Assembly: GCA_002688265.1 (NCBI GenBank)
Contig: NZCK01000007.1
Coordinates: 33,685-97,684, forward strand
Source of the DNA: an archaeon
Lineage (GTDB): Archaea > Nanobdellota > Nanobdellia > Woesearchaeales > GW2011-AR9
Reading direction: 5' to 3'
Length of the DNA: 64,000 nt
Positions 10,768 to 37,889 of this stretch are shown in pieces. The position numbers were made by a program, and so were the translations under genes. The notes under the pieces are model-generated. The model worked only from the letters and a program-made list of their open reading frames with translations. It was not told the DNA's origin and searched no databases. The stretch's first letter is position 1. Each line of letters begins with the position of its first letter.

Positions 10768-10877
10768 GGGACTGTAGCTCAGCGGGAGAGCGCCAGACTG
10801 AAGATGCTCAAAAATCAGTGGTTTTTGGCCAATCATCTGACATCTGGATGTCAAGGGTTCAAATCCCTTCAGTCCCA
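10768..10877 (+). tRNA. tRNA-Phe (GAA) with an intron of about 38 nt at the canonical 37/38 position. No encoded CCA.
   Basis: Acceptor gggactg/cagtccc plus discriminator A. D-arm gctc...gagc. Anticodon stem ccaga/tctgg with loop cuGAAga. The stem is interrupted by tgctcaaaaatcagtggtttttggccaatcatctgaca. T-arm aaggg-ttcaaat-ccctt. Confidence 0.8.
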
Positions 10878-20244: not shown

Positions 20245-20655
20245 TTAAACTAACAAATTACGAGCATCAATCCACTTATTATCAACCCTAGCCCATAACT
20301 TACTAATTGAGAGAGGGTCAAACCCCACATATTTTATTCCAAGGCCATTTAAAGCCCTAGTATCAAAAATTTTACACTCAAACTCAAAAACTTTAACTGG
20401 ATGCATCTTCTGAAGTAAATCTATTATTTTTCCAAGCACCTCACCTTCTCCAATATTCTTTTCAGCATCAAATACACCTATTGATTTTACTATTGATCTG
20501 CCAGCAGGACCTTTAAACCGAAATGAAATTGTACCAACAGAAGTATTTTTCTTGCACTTTGAAGGAACTAAATAATTGTCGCCCTTGTAGCTTATTAAAT
20601 TAGGTGGAATCAATTGAAGTAAATCAAAATTGTCCCACAAAAATTGTATGATCAA
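20245..20655 (-). CDS. Hypothetical protein. It has only a TTG start and is in frame with 20683..20955.
   Basis: No ATG before Met at residue 100-plus. The frame is open all the way up to the TGA of the upstream ORF. Confidence 0.3.
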   Translation of the reverse strand: MIIQFLWDNFDLLQLIPPNLISYKGDNYLVPSKCKKNTSVGTISFRFKGPAGRSIVKSIGVFDAEKNIGEGEVLGKIIDLLQKMHPVKVFEFECKIFDTRALNGLGIKYVGFDPLSISKLWARVDNKWIDARNLLV

Positions 20656-20682
20656 CTGACCATTTGTTTCAGCATCTAAATC

Positions 20683-20955
20683 TCACTCTTTTGGATTCAA
20701 ATCAGCTCTAACTCTCACAAGCATTGGATATCCTTTCATCTTATTTTCTCGTTTTATGAACCTTAAATGCTCTATTGCTTGTTTTCTTGTAGTCCACATA
20801 TAAAACCCAGTACCCTGCCCATGTCCTAAAGCCCTGCTTGGATTAATTCCCTCTTTAACAAAAATTTTTAGATTCTCATTATTTTCTCCTGTACAAGTTG
20901 CATGATACAAAGAGTAAGGATGCTTTGGAATAAATTGAAATGCCATTGAAATCAT
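20683..20955 (-). CDS. Hypothetical protein. It may be the N-terminal part of a gene continuing in-frame into 20245..20655 across a TGA.
   Basis: 90-aa ORF ending in TGA at 20683-20685. The next ORF is in the same frame 27 nt downstream. Confidence 0.35.
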   Translation of the reverse strand: MISMAFQFIPKHPYSLYHATCTGENNENLKIFVKEGINPSRALGHGQGTGFYMWTTRKQAIEHLRFIKRENKMKGYPMLVRVRADLNPKE

Positions 20956-21045
20956 AAAAGAAATTAAATATATAAATATATCTGTTTTGTTTGATATCTG
21001 TATTGTTTGGAATTATTATTGTAATATGGATTAATTAGACCAAAA

Positions 21046-22072: not shown

Positions 22073-22642
22073 TCACCACTTCTTCTCAAACATCTTTCCA
22101 AAAGATTTCATGAAATTTTCTCCCTTAGATTTGTCTTTATCTGGATCACGGACAATGAACCACACTATTAATCCAAAGACTAAAATTATTATTAACAATT
22201 CCGTGACTTCACTACTCCACCAACCAAAAATATCATAAGGTCCAGTCCAGAGTCCTAAGGAGGCTCCGAATACATAAGCTACAAAACCAATAGAAACTAT
22301 TGCAATTAATGGAGCTGCAGCTTTGGCAAAATCTGTTCCAAATATACCCATCAATAAAAGTAACATAATTGCAGCAACAGAAATTAGAGAAATACTAGGT
22401 AAGGCGTTATTCATTACATCAACAGGGTCATATCCTAAAGGATAATTTCCAGTAATATGTGGTACCACAAACAGTAAGGCCAGAGTTAAAGCAATTACAA
22501 CTGAAAAATTCTTATTATCTTTAAACAGTGGCATTTTTGTTGCCACAGCATAGACAATTGTAAACACCAACAAGAATGGTAATAGAAAATCAACTACCCC
22601 CAAGTTTTGAAATAATTGTGCTAAATTTGAAAATGTTGCCAT
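22073..22642 (-). CDS. Paralogous membrane protein, copy 2 of a tandem triplet.
   Basis: MATFSNLAQLFQNLGVVDFLLPFLLVFTIVYAV. Same length class as its neighbours. Confidence 0.55.
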   Translation of the reverse strand: MATFSNLAQLFQNLGVVDFLLPFLLVFTIVYAVATKMPLFKDNKNFSVVIALTLALLFVVPHITGNYPLGYDPVDVMNNALPSISLISVAAIMLLLLMGIFGTDFAKAAAPLIAIVSIGFVAYVFGASLGLWTGPYDIFGWWSSEVTELLIIILVFGLIVWFIVRDPDKDKSKGENFMKSFGKMFEKKW

Positions 22643-32555: not shown

Positions 32556-33608
32556 GTGATTACTCTTTTAAAAATGGGGCTTGAGAGATTATTGAGACTA
32601 AAAAATTTATTTGCTGCAGCACCTTTAATTTTAGCAATAGGCTGCCAAGATTATAATGTTAACCGGCTGCCAGAACCATGTGAACCTTGTGAAGATAGCG
32701 ATTTAGATGGCTATGTAGGTAGTGGGAATTGTCCAACTGAGTGTATCACAGATTGTGACGATACAAATTATGATATAAGTCCCATTGGAATTGAAGTTTG
32801 TGATGACCTTGATAATGATTGTAATGGAGTGATTGATGAAGCAGGAGGAGACTTGTACCACTTAGACTCAGATGGAGATGGATTTGGTGGTAAAGAAACC
32901 CATGATTTTTGTAACCCAGAATTTGGTTATGTTCTTAATGATGATGATTGTAATGATGAAGACGTTAATGTAAATCCTGCAGCAACTGAAATCTGCGATG
33001 GAATTGATAATGATTGTAACGGAGAAATAGATGAAGTTGGGAGCGAATGGTACTTAGATTCAGATGGAGATGGATTTGGAGATGTAAATAATAGTCAATT
33101 TGATTGTGACAAACCAGATGGATATGTTGATGATTTAACTGACTGCGATGATGGAAATGAGTTAGTCTTTCCTGGAGCAGAAGAAGTTTGTAACTTACTT
33201 GATGATGATTGTGAAGGAACAATAGATCTTGATCCTAACACTGGCTTTTCTGTATGCCCAGAGTTTCCAGCAACAACTGGCTATTGGCCTCTTGATAATG
33301 ATGGATTTGTAAGTGGAGATTTTGATGTGAAAGATTATAGTGTCAATGAAGTGCATGGAACAAACTCAAATGGAGTATATGTTGAAGGTGCTTTTTTGGA
33401 TACTGAAGGGGCAATATATTTTGATGGAAATAATTCAGAAATTGATTTTGGAGAATTTGCTGGAAACGCTAGTCCTTTGTTACATAATTCAACAGATTCT
33501 TTCACAATAATGCTTTGGATTAATACTTCAATTATCCTTCAGGAAATGCACCAATCATTTGTGAAGATTATGCAAGCTTTGAAAATGAAGAACTTGGCTT
33601 GTATGTAA
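32556..33608 (+). CDS. Secreted lipoprotein with MopE-like putative metal-binding repeats. This is the N-terminal part of a frameshifted gene.
   Basis: Lipobox LILAIGC. There are at least four repeats of the CDDx..P..E.CDxxDNDCNGxIDE pattern. The start of a LamG/ConA-like domain (AIYFDGNNSEIDF...FTIMLWINT) then runs into an out-of-frame tail. Confidence 0.55.
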   Translation: MITLLKMGLERLLRLKNLFAAAPLILAIGCQDYNVNRLPEPCEPCEDSDLDGYVGSGNCPTECITDCDDTNYDISPIGIEVCDDLDNDCNGVIDEAGGDLYHLDSDGDGFGGKETHDFCNPEFGYVLNDDDCNDEDVNVNPAATEICDGIDNDCNGEIDEVGSEWYLDSDGDGFGDVNNSQFDCDKPDGYVDDLTDCDDGNELVFPGAEEVCNLLDDDCEGTIDLDPNTGFSVCPEFPATTGYWPLDNDGFVSGDFDVKDYSVNEVHGTNSNGVYVEGAFLDTEGAIYFDGNNSEIDFGEFAGNASPLLHNSTDSFTIMLWINTSIILQEMHQSFVKIMQALKMKNLACM

Positions 33609-34006
33609 ACTCAGATGGAAATCTATTTTTTAATTTACGTGGTAGTGATGGCCCAGGAACCTCACTAAAAGCATACAGTACAAGCACTGTTGTCACAGGT
33701 TCTTGGGAACATATTGCAGCAGTTTACAGTGTTCAAGACTCAGAAATGAGAATTTATGTCAATGGTACTCTTGAAGGAAGCCAAATAACTGATGGGAGTA
33801 CTGGACTTGGAACCCTTTCTGGATCTTTACAAAACGGTTCTTTGCACTTTGCAAAAAAACCAAGCGATATTAATGATGATAATTTTGCTGTTATAACATT
33901 AGACGATGTAGCATGGTTTGATGATGCACTTGAAGCTAGTACGGCAGAAGATACACTTAGTACGTACCTTTCTTTAGGTATTCCTTTTGGTGATTATTAT
34001 CCTTAA
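33599..34006 (+). CDS. LamG/concanavalin-A-like domain, C-terminal part of the frameshifted lipoprotein gene. The frame is open from 33524.
   Basis: YPSGNAPII...LYVNSDGNLFFNL...HIAAVYSVQDSEMRIYVNGTL continues the LamG fold begun in frame 0. An apparent -1 shift lies between 33524 and 33538. Confidence 0.5.
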   Translation: MYVNSDGNLFFNLRGSDGPGTSLKAYSTSTVVTGSWEHIAAVYSVQDSEMRIYVNGTLEGSQITDGSTGLGTLSGSLQNGSLHFAKKPSDINDDNFAVITLDDVAWFDDALEASTAEDTLSTYLSLGIPFGDYYP

Positions 34007-34072: not shown

Positions 34073-35422
34073 ATGGTCTTAGAAAAATTAGGAGATAGTC
34101 TTCGTGCAACACTAAAGAAGATTACTGGAGCTGGCCTAGTTGATGAAAAAATTATCAACGAATTAGTAAAGGATATTCAACGTGCTCTTCTGCAAAGCGA
34201 CACAAATGTAAAACTAGTCTTTGCTCTTGGGAAAAAGATTAAAGAAAGGGCAAGGCAACCAGCACCAACAGGCATTTCTCAAAGAGAATACTTAATCAAT
34301 ATTGTATATGAAGAATTGGTAGCATTCTTGGGAGCTGAAGCAAGAGAAATCGTGCTTGATAAAAAACCAAAAAAAATTATGTTAGTTGGACTATTTGGTT
34401 CTGGAAAAACCACCACTTGTGGGAAACTTGCTAAATATTATAAAAAACGAGGGATGAAAGTTGCAGTTATCCAAACCGATACTTGGAGACCCGCAGCCTA
34501 CGAACAACTTAAACAATTAGCTTCAAAAGTAGGAGTTGATTTCTTTGGCGATGAATCTCTTAAAGATCCTAGTGCTATTTATTCCAAATATGAAAAAGAA
34601 CTTTTACAATATGATCTTGTGATCGTTGACACCGCTGGACGTGATGCACTCTCAGATGAATTAATTAGTGAGTTAACAGCAATTCATTCTGCTGTTGGTG
34701 CTGATGAAAAACTTCTCGTTATCTCTGCAGACATAGGACAATCTGCCCAAAAACAAGCACAAATGTTCCACGACACTTGTGCAGTTACCGGAGTAATTGT
34801 TACTAAACTAGAAGGGACTGCAAAAGGAGGAGGAGCACTATCTGCTTGTGCAGTTACAGGTGCACCAATTATGTTTATTGGAATTGGAGAAAAAGTTGAT
34901 GACTTAGAAGTTTTCTATCCAAAGAGGTTTGTAGGTAGATTACTTGGAATGGGAGACATTGAAAGTTTACTCGAGAAAGCACGCGAAGCAATTACTGAAG
35001 ATGAAGCTGCTGACATGACTGACAAATTCATGAGTGGAGATTTCAATCTTAATGATCTATATGAACAAATGGCATCCATGAAAAAAATGGGGTCCCTTGG
35101 AAAATTAATGGAAATGATCCCTGGAATGGGTGCATTGAAGCTTCCTAAGGAGATGTTAGATGTACAGGAGGGGAAATTGCAAAAATGGAAATATGCAATG
35201 GATTCTATGACTGCAAAAGAGAGGGAAGAACCTTCAGTATTTAGTAGTTCTAGAATTGAAAGGGTTGCTACTGGAGCTGGAATTTCAGTTAGGGATGTTA
35301 GGGATTTACTTAAACAATTTAGACAAAGTAAAAAGATGATGAAAATGTTTAAAGGAGAAAAAGATCCTGCCGCTATGATGAAAAAATTTAAAGGGAAATT
35401 GCCGGCAGGGTTTGGTGGGTAA
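34073..35422 (+). CDS. srp54: Signal recognition particle protein SRP54.
   Basis: N domain plus GTPase with GLFGSGKTTTCGKLA, DTAGR and TKLEGTAKGG. Met-rich M domain (MMKMFKG...MMKKFKG). Confidence 0.9.
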   Translation: MVLEKLGDSLRATLKKITGAGLVDEKIINELVKDIQRALLQSDTNVKLVFALGKKIKERARQPAPTGISQREYLINIVYEELVAFLGAEAREIVLDKKPKKIMLVGLFGSGKTTTCGKLAKYYKKRGMKVAVIQTDTWRPAAYEQLKQLASKVGVDFFGDESLKDPSAIYSKYEKELLQYDLVIVDTAGRDALSDELISELTAIHSAVGADEKLLVISADIGQSAQKQAQMFHDTCAVTGVIVTKLEGTAKGGGALSACAVTGAPIMFIGIGEKVDDLEVFYPKRFVGRLLGMGDIESLLEKAREAITEDEAADMTDKFMSGDFNLNDLYEQMASMKKMGSLGKLMEMIPGMGALKLPKEMLDVQEGKLQKWKYAMDSMTAKEREEPSVFSSSRIERVATGAGISVRDVRDLLKQFRQSKKMMKMFKGEKDPAAMMKKFKGKLPAGFGG

Positions 35423-35586
35423 ATAACACTTTTTATAAAAAGAAATAAAAAGGTCTTCTTCTTTATTTATCTCATTTGTGAAATTGAATCTATAGAGTGA
35501 TGAGTTGGCAAGATGACAAGTTTAGACCAAATTAAAATATTTTTAAGGAAATTAGATCTGATAGAAGGAAAGTTGTTCGTAGAGTT

Positions 35587-36177
35587 ATGAGCCAATATGC
35601 TGAGCTTAGGGATTTTGGAGGATTGTATAACCATCCTAGGATGAATGAATTTGAACATTCAGAATATTTTGATAACAAGAACGCAGCTTTTGCAAAAAGA
35701 GGAAGAAGATCTCTTAGAAAATCTATTGGGATTGAGAGGAAAGAAGCAAGACACTTTGATAAATTGTTAGAGTTTTTGAAAAAACTAGCGCCGCTACTTA
35801 CAGAACCTTACTTTAACCAATTAGGGTCAATAATTATTGCTCTTGAAACTTATCATGCTGGAACAGTTAAAGCCTTATCTGTTGGAGGATCATTGGACAA
35901 ACAAGTTCGGCAGAATAGTGATCTTCGAAAGATTGCCTCAACATTAATCCCACAAGTTAAAAAATTTATAGAGGAAGTTAATGTCCCTTTCATGGCTTCT
36001 CTTAAAGAATTAGATGCATTTTGTAACCAAGAAGCTGCGATACTTGAAGCAAAACGAAAAGCCATTACATTAAATATTCCTATTGATGCTGGTTTAAAAA
36101 GTTGTAATGTAACTCCAAAAATAATCTTGATGGATACTTCTTTCTTGTTCAGAGTGTTAGAAGCTAGGAAAAACTAA
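35587..36177 (+). CDS. Hypothetical protein whose C-terminus begins a PIN domain. It is terminated by an in-frame TAA.
   Basis: The last residues PKIILMDTSFLFRVLEARKN resemble PIN strand-1 with the catalytic Asp. TAA is at 36175-36177. Confidence 0.5.
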   Translation: MSQYAELRDFGGLYNHPRMNEFEHSEYFDNKNAAFAKRGRRSLRKSIGIERKEARHFDKLLEFLKKLAPLLTEPYFNQLGSIIIALETYHAGTVKALSVGGSLDKQVRQNSDLRKIASTLIPQVKKFIEEVNVPFMASLKELDAFCNQEAAILEAKRKAITLNIPIDAGLKSCNVTPKIILMDTSFLFRVLEARKN

Positions 36178-36621
36178 AAAAAAGAACTGGTTAATTTACA
36201 TCTGCCACCTCGAGTTGAAAAAAACTACCCTATAGAAGTACTTAGAGAAAAAAAACAAGGAGAGGTTAGAGTTTTTAGAAGAGTTCTTGATAATGAACAA
36301 TTTAGTTCAGTCCATATAGGACTGACAGATAAAGAAAAAAATGAAGTTTTATACCTTTGGAAAAAAACTGGCAAATATTCTGTTTCTACAGAAGAAGAAA
36401 AAAGAAAATTTTTTGCTTCAGCAGATATTAAATTACTAGGGTTGGCATTAAGAGAAGTTAGAAAATATCCTAGTGCAGTTGTAGTCATACTTACAACAGA
36501 CGCAGATATTTATGATACTGTTAGAAAAGCTAAATTTTATTACAGGGGAACTTATCCACACTGGCGACGAGTAAGTTGTTTTCAGTATTATGAAAGTACT
36601 GGATTTAAAAGAGCTGCCTAA
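36178..36621 (+). CDS. PIN-domain remainder. It continues in frame from 35587..36177 with no start codon, so it is either readthrough or a pseudogene fragment.
   Basis: 148 sense codons follow the TAA with no ATG or GTG. PIN C-terminal motifs are SADIKLLGLALRE and VVVILTTDADIY. This is statistically very unlikely to be non-coding in an AT-rich genome. Confidence 0.45.
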   Translation, partial: KKELVNLHLPPRVEKNYPIEVLREKKQGEVRVFRRVLDNEQFSSVHIGLTDKEKNEVLYLWKKTGKYSVSTEEEKRKFFASADIKLLGLALREVRKYPSAVVVILTTDADIYDTVRKAKFYYRGTYPHWRRVSCFQYYESTGFKRAA

Positions 36622-37076
36622 AGTAAATCTAACTCTTTTAGAAGACGTCTGCCATTAAGAGTTTTTCTGAGTTGACTTGCTGAAATAATAGAATAATCTG
36701 TTCTTTCAATAGTATCAATCTCTCCACCAACAGTAAGACGCACATCATACAATTCTAATTTGTTGCCAGTAGTAGTGAATACTCTTTGGGTTCTTTGAGA
36801 TGCAAATAATTCTCTGACATCCTCTTCAAATGAAGTGGATTCACCAATTATTGGAATAGAATATAACTCATCATAAGGAGTATTGAAAGGAATTGCAGAA
36901 GCAGAATAACTAAACAGCAAATCATTGATTATTTCAGTTTCTTGAAGAGAAAAAGCATCTCTTCTTACATGGAAATAATCACCAATATGAACTGAGTTTA
37001 TATCCAATAATGCTTTGTCAAGAACCCAAATTGGACGAAATGCAAATCGTAAATCTAAATCTGCTGCTGCCTCCAT
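36618..37076 (-). CDS. Hypothetical protein.
   Basis: 152-aa ORF. No family recognised. Confidence 0.4.
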   Translation of the reverse strand: MEAAADLDLRFAFRPIWVLDKALLDINSVHIGDYFHVRRDAFSLQETEIINDLLFSYSASAIPFNTPYDELYSIPIIGESTSFEEDVRELFASQRTQRVFTTTGNKLELYDVRLTVGGEIDTIERTDYSIISASQLRKTLNGRRLLKELDLL

Positions 37077-37259
37077 AAACCAAATATAGATGGTTTTTTA
37101 TAAAGTTATCTCTAGAACGTAGTTACAGTGTGTCAAATTAAGTAGAAATCTGTTTTTTATTTGGTACTAGGCCTTTCACTCCGATAGCCACAAACTTTAC
37201 AATACTTCACTAGATACATACCATCTGAGAACTTATGCTGACCTTTATGTAATTGTTTT

Positions 37260-37889
37260 TTACAATCGGGACACTGTGTGTTTTCCATCATCATTTACCT
37301 CAATTAAAGTACCTGTCTTTCCAACATTAAAAACTCTGGTATTTCCTATCTTTTCTTCCATTCCATGAGTTTCATGGATATGTCCACAGATATGAAGTGC
37401 TGGTTGGAACTCTTCTACTGCTTTACGTACACCAGTTGATCCTGGGAAAACTCCAAGTCCAATTACTGAATCACTTGGCTGGACATGTGAAACCATAATT
37501 TTATGTTTCACGTCTTTAACTTGTTCATGCGCTTGCTTTAAAGTTGCGAAAAATTCAGCTTCTGAAAGTTGATGAATTCCAACATCAGCATAACCACAAC
37601 CAAAAATTCCTACATCACCTTTCTGGATAACATAGCCGTGTAAACTTTTGGCATCATAATGTTTAGTTAGAAAATTAGTTTTAGCTAAACCTTCATGATT
37701 ACCAGGAATAATTGCAACATCTAAACCTTCTGCTTTTAGAGGACCCACTAAACCATCAATATTTCCATCATCATCAGCTAAGTCTCCAGCTAAAATAACT
37801 AAATCTACTTCCGCGGCCTTGCCTTTTTTGGCCATCTGCTGCATGAACCGTTTGTCCCCGTGAATGTCTGAGAGTGCTAGAATTTTCAT
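37260..37889 (-). CDS. Calcineurin-like metallophosphoesterase.
   Basis: LALSDIHGD, LAGDLADDDG, GNHE and GHIHE metal-binding motifs. Confidence 0.7.
   Translation of the reverse strand: MKILALSDIHGDKRFMQQMAKKGKAAEVDLVILAGDLADDDGNIDGLVGPLKAEGLDVAIIPGNHEGLAKTNFLTKHYDAKSLHGYVIQKGDVGIFGCGYADVGIHQLSEAEFFATLKQAHEQVKDVKHKIMVSHVQPSDSVIGLGVFPGSTGVRKAVEEFQPALHICGHIHETHGMEEKIGNTRVFNVGKTGTLIEVNDDGKHTVSRL

Follow-up and report, generated by a model that had tools for sequence, protein, structure and literature searches.

A gene for a PIN-like protein interrupted by an in-frame TAA and a missing base in an archaeal metagenome-assembled genome: probably a young pseudogene

We analyzed a 64-kb stretch of archaeal DNA, referred to as the window, to which all coordinates refer. 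Downstream of the gene for SRP54 (34073..35422, + strand, ending with TAA) lies an open reading frame (ORF) of 196 aa (35587..36177, + strand) that starts with the ATG at 35587, closes with ...PKIILMDTSFLFRVLEARKN-TAA (stop at 36175-36177) and is known from public annotation as gene call CL619_01045. Behind this stop, the same frame remains open for 147 sense codons (36178-36618) up to a second TAA at 36619-36621, which is the original terminator of the gene. Neither ATG nor GTG occurs in frame within 36178-36618, and TTG does so once, at 36442. The original prediction had described exactly this arrangement, an ORF cut by an in-frame TAA with a long start-less open frame behind it, and its coordinates, its content and the lone late TTG were all borne out. 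On the opposite strand, a small convergent ORF (36618..37076, - strand, 152 aa, no Pfam match) abuts or overlaps the end of the gene, an arrangement that is kept in orthologous loci. As described below, the ancestral gene is now in three pieces: a 5' remnant (35513-35590), the 196-aa ORF as the middle fragment (35587-36177) and the start-less downstream fragment (36178-36621, + strand).

The length of the downstream frame is unusual for this DNA. At a G+C content of 35%, the chance of 147 consecutive open codons is about 1e-5 when calculated from base composition and about 1e-4 when calculated from the observed frequency of stop trinucleotides, and approximately 0.7 open segments of this length are expected by chance over the six frames of the window. 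Such chance segments are normally shadows of real genes, and 36178-36618 is not one. The claim that the stretch is coding rather than a chance opening is settled by homology: its codons align one to one with those for the C-terminal 40% of intact orthologs, and it encodes the remaining three quarters of a PIN-like domain (family HMM positions 226-370, E 6e-39).

To find relatives, the sequence joined across the stop was searched against 5.8 billion proteins, and only three clusters were recovered. P0002 is the 196-aa fragment itself at 100% identity ("hypothetical protein CL619_01045 [archaeon]," from a Tara Oceans MAG), and the other two are full-length proteins covering 100% of the joined query: P0001, with 365 aa and 59% identity, and P0003, with 370 aa and 50% identity. 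An exhaustive HMMER search with a profile of these three sequences added approximately 22 more distant relatives of 360-395 aa, every one of which is a single polypeptide across the stop site. At the DNA level, a search of six-frame translations with the family HMM showed an intact gene at L001, L002, L006/7, L008-10, L011, L013, L016 and L044, and of the 91 loci examined in this way, none but the window and its identical copies has a split gene. In profile scans for strain variants and for relatives closer than these, genome contigs gave no match and metagenomes gave the identical Tara contig alone. Three short family representatives (P0013, P0020 and P0023, with 147, 104 and 265 aa, respectively) match the C-terminal part of the profile only; either truncation at contig ends or further splitting of family members could account for them.

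The intact genes identify the first lesion. Where the window has TAA (36175..36177, + strand), both close orthologs, L001 and L002, have CAA, so that the stop appears as a nonsense mutation of a glutamine codon by a single C-to-T transition. The original prediction had named two things that orthologs might show at this position, a sense codon or a termination of their own; we found the former, CAA (Gln) in L001 and L002, and none of the latter, all relatives running through the site. In the wider family, the interrupted position is variable and is occupied by Q, A, H, K, F or D. The stop falls between strand 1/helix 1 of the PIN-like domain and the conserved glutamate, that is, between D183 and E221 and inside the catalytic core.

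A second lesion in the same gene, which the original prediction overlooked, lies at its 5' end. All 24 family members carry an N-terminal extension of approximately 25 residues ahead of the first methionine of the window ORF, and that methionine is itself an internal residue conserved in the two closest orthologs. Three-frame translation of the window showed that the start codon and first 8 codons of the orthologs (MTSLDQIK) survive at 35513 in a different frame, with the correct frame (…KEIRSDRRKVVRRVM…) picking up again a few codons later. The resulting remnant of the ancestral 5' end (35513..35590, + strand) comprises the conserved ATG, MTSLDQIK and out-of-frame codons up to a TGA at 35588-35590. 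In a DNA alignment with L001, L002 and L006, the distance from the ATG at 35513 to a conserved CAATATG is 98 nt in the window and 99 nt in the three orthologous loci, and the single-base gap is placed within 35537-35547. This 1-nt deletion separates the conserved first 25 codons from the rest of the gene. A programmed -1 frameshift was considered here and dismissed, as the site lacks an X XXY YYZ heptamer and the orthologs are simply one base longer. If the conserved internal methionine is used as the start codon, the frameshift could be harmless.

At 35587-35590, the TGA that ends the remnant ORF from 35513 overlaps the ATG of the 196-aa ORF (ATGA). Termination and re-initiation would be possible at such an overlap; coincidence is the most likely explanation, judging from the methionine codon, which is conserved in the two closest orthologs.

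The loci of P0001 and P0003 are syntenic with the window: SRP54 precedes the gene, and a small convergent ORF, a metallophosphatase and a PEMT-like gene follow it. The order SRP54, helical and PIN-like gene, convergent ORF, metallophosphatase (34073-37889 in the window) is kept in L001, L002, L008-L010 and L013, all of which also have SRP54 as the upstream neighbor. This gene order is maintained among orthologs of only 33-60% identity, and distant members of the family, such as L011, occur in other contexts. The relatives of the window's SRP54 (up to 83% identity) come from MAGs labeled Woesearchaeota, Nanoarchaeota or Nanobdellota, or from mislabeled ones, and on the basis of these relatives the host is assigned to the marine DPANN archaea. 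The PIN-like family itself was found in metagenomic sequences only, and its organism-labeled members belong to DPANN-type (Woesearchaeota) MAGs.

The joined protein is predicted to consist of an N-terminal bundle of long helices (residues 28-160; 35668..36066, + strand) and a C-terminal PIN-like alpha/beta domain (residues 161-344; 36067..36618, + strand), the latter being the domain that the stop interrupts. The AlphaFold2 model depends on alignment depth, with a mean pLDDT of 88.8 on the 25-sequence alignment and a pLDDT of 47 with 3 sequences. The C-terminal domain of the model has a Rossmann-like alpha/beta/alpha fold with a parallel sheet, as in the PIN-like superfamily, and the first of four conserved acids (D/E/D/D) lies at the end of strand 1. 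Across the 25 sequences, with pairwise identity down to 17%, D183, E221 and F275 are invariant, and V218, W258, D280 and D305 are conserved in at least 90%. In the family alignment (A2), the four acids D183 (36133-36135), E221 (36247-36249), D280 (36424-36426) and D305 (36499-36501), all on the + strand, sit in the motifs LxDxxF, PxxVxxE, SGDxxIL and ILSNDxDI, respectively. This four-acid arrangement is classical for PIN domains. The segments LMDTS, SADIKLL and TTDADIY, which had been picked out in the original prediction as parts of a PIN fold, indeed carry the invariant or near-invariant acids D183, D280 and D305 of the family.

Structural comparison points in the same direction. The top Foldseek matches in the PDB are a pre-40S complex chain (8cbj_a, E 0.012), Pyrococcus horikoshii Nob1 (2lcq, E 0.035, probability 1.0), the PIN domains of yeast and K. 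lactis Nmd4 and a chain of the SSU processome; the Foldseek E-values are only 0.01-0.2. Sequence models do not give the same answer. Neither half of the window protein nor the joined sequence matches Pfam, no curated PIN-clan model scores above its gathering threshold in the window protein or the 25 members, and NCBIfam and PADLOC have no significant match. Below threshold, PIN_4 was detected in 5 of the 25 members (best E 0.0078) and PIN_12 and NYN in one member each. In a PDB profile search, the only sensible matches of the C-terminal domain were HARP and 2qip (LabA/NYN-like), both nonsignificant at E ~1, and the helical domain gave coiled-coil noise only. The identification as PIN, made from motifs by eye, thus holds for the fold and the conserved D/E/D/D set and fails at the level of a Pfam PIN model at threshold. 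A PIN-like assignment is supported by the predicted fold and active site; membership in a curated PIN family is not established.

The family resembles PIN endonucleases of the Nob1/Nmd4/Utp24 type in its predicted alpha/beta/alpha fold and in the order of its acids, D on strand 1 followed by E, D and D. It also aligns with HARP, a PIN-like RNase P, over the D...P.V..EM motif, at a nonsignificant E-value. On the basis of the model and the conserved acids, the domain is presumably a Mg-dependent RNA nuclease. However, the family lacks the zinc ribbon of Nob1, adds a unique N-terminal helical bundle of approximately 160 aa to the endonuclease domain and, unlike known PIN endonucleases, has no Pfam, NCBIfam or PADLOC model at threshold. 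This combination of helical bundle and PIN-like domain (~365 aa) is previously undescribed, a mildly new item and the only one here, and as it lacks a model in these three resources it may deserve its own family definition.

The source of the window is a metagenome-assembled genome, which raises the question of whether the dominant genotype in the population is intact, the assemblers having fixed a consensus error or a low-frequency variant at the TAA, at the missing base or at both. The window gene is 100% identical in a MEGAHIT contig of run ERR594345 (L003, 52 kb), in the Tara assembly contig CEPX01399165 (L004/L005, 1.56 kb) and in the MAG, and the identity between the window and the contigs from the two other pipelines spans 6.6 kb and 1.56 kb. 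An assembly base error behind the TAA is unlikely given three separate assemblies that agree base for base. These were made with separate software and possibly from shared Tara reads, so that they are independent in method and perhaps not in data. Both lesions also lie within A-rich sequence, as an artefact might. Against this stands the condition of the long housekeeping ORFs in the window: SRP54, PRPP synthetase, an XPD-like helicase, Cbf5, L31e and a class II (D/K/N-type) aminoacyl-tRNA synthetase are all uninterrupted, which indicates a low overall rate of sequence error. The candidate lesions in the window are confined to lineage-specific or accessory genes, namely, the PIN-like gene, a LamG-domain surface protein and an ORFan, as would be expected if real mutations had been filtered by selection and less so if the errors were random. 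The types of lesion are also not those expected of an Illumina consensus: substitution-type consensus errors are rare on this platform, and indels in runs of 2-3 A are not among its failure modes.

Split genes caused by assembly error are nevertheless known from DPANN genome sets. In nanopore assemblies of Nanobdellota genomes, approximately 5.9 split-gene events per genome, or approximately 0.4% of loci, were counted (bioRxiv 10.64898/2026.05.13.725050). A case among our own loci supports the same concern. In L009 (1099-2447; JGI contig Ga0233449_1000397, from a related archaeon), SRP54 is called as two ORFs of 314 and 135 aa, and it is intact (449 aa) in ENA contigs whose PIN-like protein is identical to that of L009. 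The split there is probably an assembly frameshift, and such artefacts do occur in this type of data. Considering both sides, we regard an artefactual origin of the lesions in the PIN-like gene as unlikely.

If the lesions are real, the state of the downstream fragment bears on their age. With P0003 as the outgroup, the window lineage has 18 unique amino acid changes upstream of the stop versus 16 for P0001, and 14 versus 15 downstream. Downstream dN/dS (NG86) is 0.37 between the window and L001 and 0.49 between the two intact genes, at a dS of ~1 that is near saturation and gives the comparison low power. All family-invariant or conserved catalytic and core residues are kept downstream, and the 147 codons are free of other stops and of frameshifts. 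Relaxed selection downstream of the TAA is therefore not visible in unique changes, dN/dS or residues, in a test weakened by the near saturation of dS. The lack of extra divergence and the retention of the conserved residues suggest a young lesion; we infer that it is very recent at the scale of these divergences or that the downstream region is still translated.

The second of these readings requires functional read-through, in which the UAA is decoded often enough to be useful, either with a near-cognate tRNA (Gln, Lys or Tyr) or with a suppressor tRNA whose gene lies outside the window, and the full-length PIN-like protein is still made, possibly at a regulated low level. The lack of visible relaxation is the only argument that favors it: preservation of the 147 codons behind the stop is perfect, their rate of change is not accelerated and every conserved residue is in place, as would also be the case in a still-translated region. 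Read-through would be tolerable at this site, as the interrupted position is variable in the family and could accept any inserted residue, and the 64-kb window has two more start-less open frames, each located behind a stop or a frameshift. The locus shares with programmed read-through and natural suppression, such as viral leaky stops and Sec/Pyl recoding, an in-frame stop followed by a long conserved open frame. The resemblance ends there. Conservation of the stop is the hallmark of programmed read-through, and this stop is not conserved, with CAA in the close orthologs and assorted sense residues in distant relatives. It is also UAA rather than UGA or UAG. Among the stops, UAA leaks least, and termination in eRF1/aRF1-type systems is favored by a purine at +4; the context here, AAC-UAA-AAAAAAG (UAA-A), combines the two and would make for strong termination.

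Stimulatory elements were likewise not found at the site. A 119-nt downstream segment folds at -17.1 kcal/mol, no better than shuffled sequences (z = 0.21), and no Rfam element was detected there. ARAGORN and Rfam revealed no suppressor tRNA with anticodon UUA within the 64-kb window, where the only credible tRNAs are Arg(TCG) and Phe(GAA). The tRNA-Phe (10768-10877, + strand; Rfam 63 bits, ~110 nt, anticodon loop CUGAAGA) contains an intron and was missed by ARAGORN; it was considered as a suppressor and rejected since its anticodon reads GAA (Phe). ARAGORN also called a 90-nt tRNA-Ile(AAT) with an unusual anticodon (22139-22228, - strand). This call is probably a false positive, as it lies inside the ORF 22073..22642 and has no Rfam tRNA match even at E <= 1.

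A change in the genetic code can be set aside. Among the 40 open frames of at least 200 codons in the window, TAA is the main terminator (23 frames, followed by TGA with 11 and TAG with 6), and it ends SRP54 at the same C-terminal position as in the SRP54 ortholog, which rules out stop-codon reassignment. The dominance of TAA as a genuine terminator also counts against read-through at this one TAA, as does the frameshift in the same gene, which argues for decay. The literature that we searched contained no report of UAA read-through in archaea. Taken together, this makes functional read-through, including continued production of the full-length protein, very improbable.

Another possibility is that the gene was shortened with function retained. 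The 196-aa helical fragment could be a selected binding or scaffolding product without nuclease activity, or the two halves could form a split protein whose downstream half is initiated at a noncanonical codon. The 196-aa ORF does keep a conserved methionine as its start and a complete helical domain, and the ATGA overlap with the upstream remnant would permit coupled re-initiation. However, the cut runs through the PIN core, with strand 1/helix 1 on one side and strand 2 on the other, rather than along a domain boundary, and no relative in the databases is organized as two genes. The downstream half has no ATG or GTG, and starting at its only TTG (36442), beyond the conserved glutamate, would remove half of the domain. 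Even when both forms are considered jointly, a functional truncation is quite improbable.

We consider it likely that the PIN-like gene is an ordinary, recently inactivated and still young pseudogene. The original prediction had listed a recent pseudogene, an assembly error and read-through without ranking them; the first is now favored, the second appears unlikely and the third is unsupported. The pseudogene reading is preferred because the orthologs have CAA at the stop, because the gene carries a second disabling lesion and because its downstream half is undecayed. The gene thus shows a lesion where orthologs have a sense codon, an additional lesion and an identical sequence in three assemblies; counting against the reading, the downstream fragment shows no sign of relaxed constraint. 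Like ordinary prokaryotic pseudogenes formed by nonsense and frameshift mutations in non-essential genes, it has more than one lesion relative to intact syntenic orthologs, the rest of its ORF is recognizable, and it is a lineage-specific accessory gene. It differs from them in that relaxation is not measurable, which would make it very young or the test underpowered.

Under the pseudogene reading, the ancestral gene would have encoded a protein of approximately 370 aa that combined a helical bundle at the N terminus with a PIN-like domain at the C terminus; its orthologs are kept beside SRP54 in a subclade of marine and aquatic DPANN (Woesearchaeota-type) archaea. In the sampled population, a C-to-T change at 36175 would have turned CAA into TAA, and a 1-nt deletion approximately 30 nt into the gene would have cut off the first 25 codons. 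Translation from the internal ATG at 35587 would then stop at the TAA and yield a 196-aa product composed of the helical domain and the first strand and helix of the nuclease domain. As this product keeps one of the four conserved acids, nuclease activity would presumably be lost, and the 147 downstream codons would go untranslated and be intact for want of time to decay. What we observe are the two lesions, the intact orthologs, the identical assemblies, the normal use of TAA as a terminator and the lack of visible decay; the loss of function, the lack of downstream translation and the nuclease function itself are things that we infer.

A young pseudogene in a MAG is a textbook phenomenon. 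This one, if correctly read, could serve scans for stop-codon recoding in archaea as a clean negative control. It shows that recoding should not be called from an in-frame UAA and a long conserved frame behind it, and that the question is quickly answered by the codons of orthologs together with terminator usage. Annotation pipelines should also mark the 196-aa and 59-aa calls as pieces of a single gene.

The PIN-like gene is one of three places in the window where an undecayed, start-less open frame continues the preceding ORF, the others following the TGA at 20683-20685 and a frameshift near 33530. A more far-reaching reading of this coincidence is that the DPANN lineage tolerates or even exploits in-frame stops, with inefficient termination or suppressor tRNAs encoded outside the window leaving such genes in partial working order. 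If true, it would be the first case of UAA suppression in archaea; we consider it extremely unlikely.

The TGA case (20245-21012, - strand) had been mentioned in the original prediction as a second and weaker example, and as an observation it is real. A 90-aa ORF (20955..20683) ends with the TGA at 20685-20683 and is followed by 145 in-frame open codons, with the first ATG 92 codons into the downstream frame. The homolog search returned only its own 131-aa fragment, and there was no Pfam match. The arrangement may be a broken ORFan, a case of read-through or two genes. Several other same-frame ORF pairs (26428/27637, 9215/10361, 42628/41614 and 48563/48341) were considered as split genes and turned out to be separate, unrelated genes.

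The third case is a gene for a MopE-repeat/LamG surface protein (32556-34006, + strand), 2 kb upstream of the PIN-like gene, which consists of the ORFs 32556..33608 and 33599..34006, the latter within a frame open from 33524. When the two frames are joined at a junction near 33525-33535, the Laminin_G_3 match extends from profile positions 38-148 (57.4 bits) to 14-148 (71.9 bits). Matches in the homolog search of this gene were swamped by MopE-repeat proteins. From the extended domain match, it is probably a second gene broken, in this case by a frameshift.
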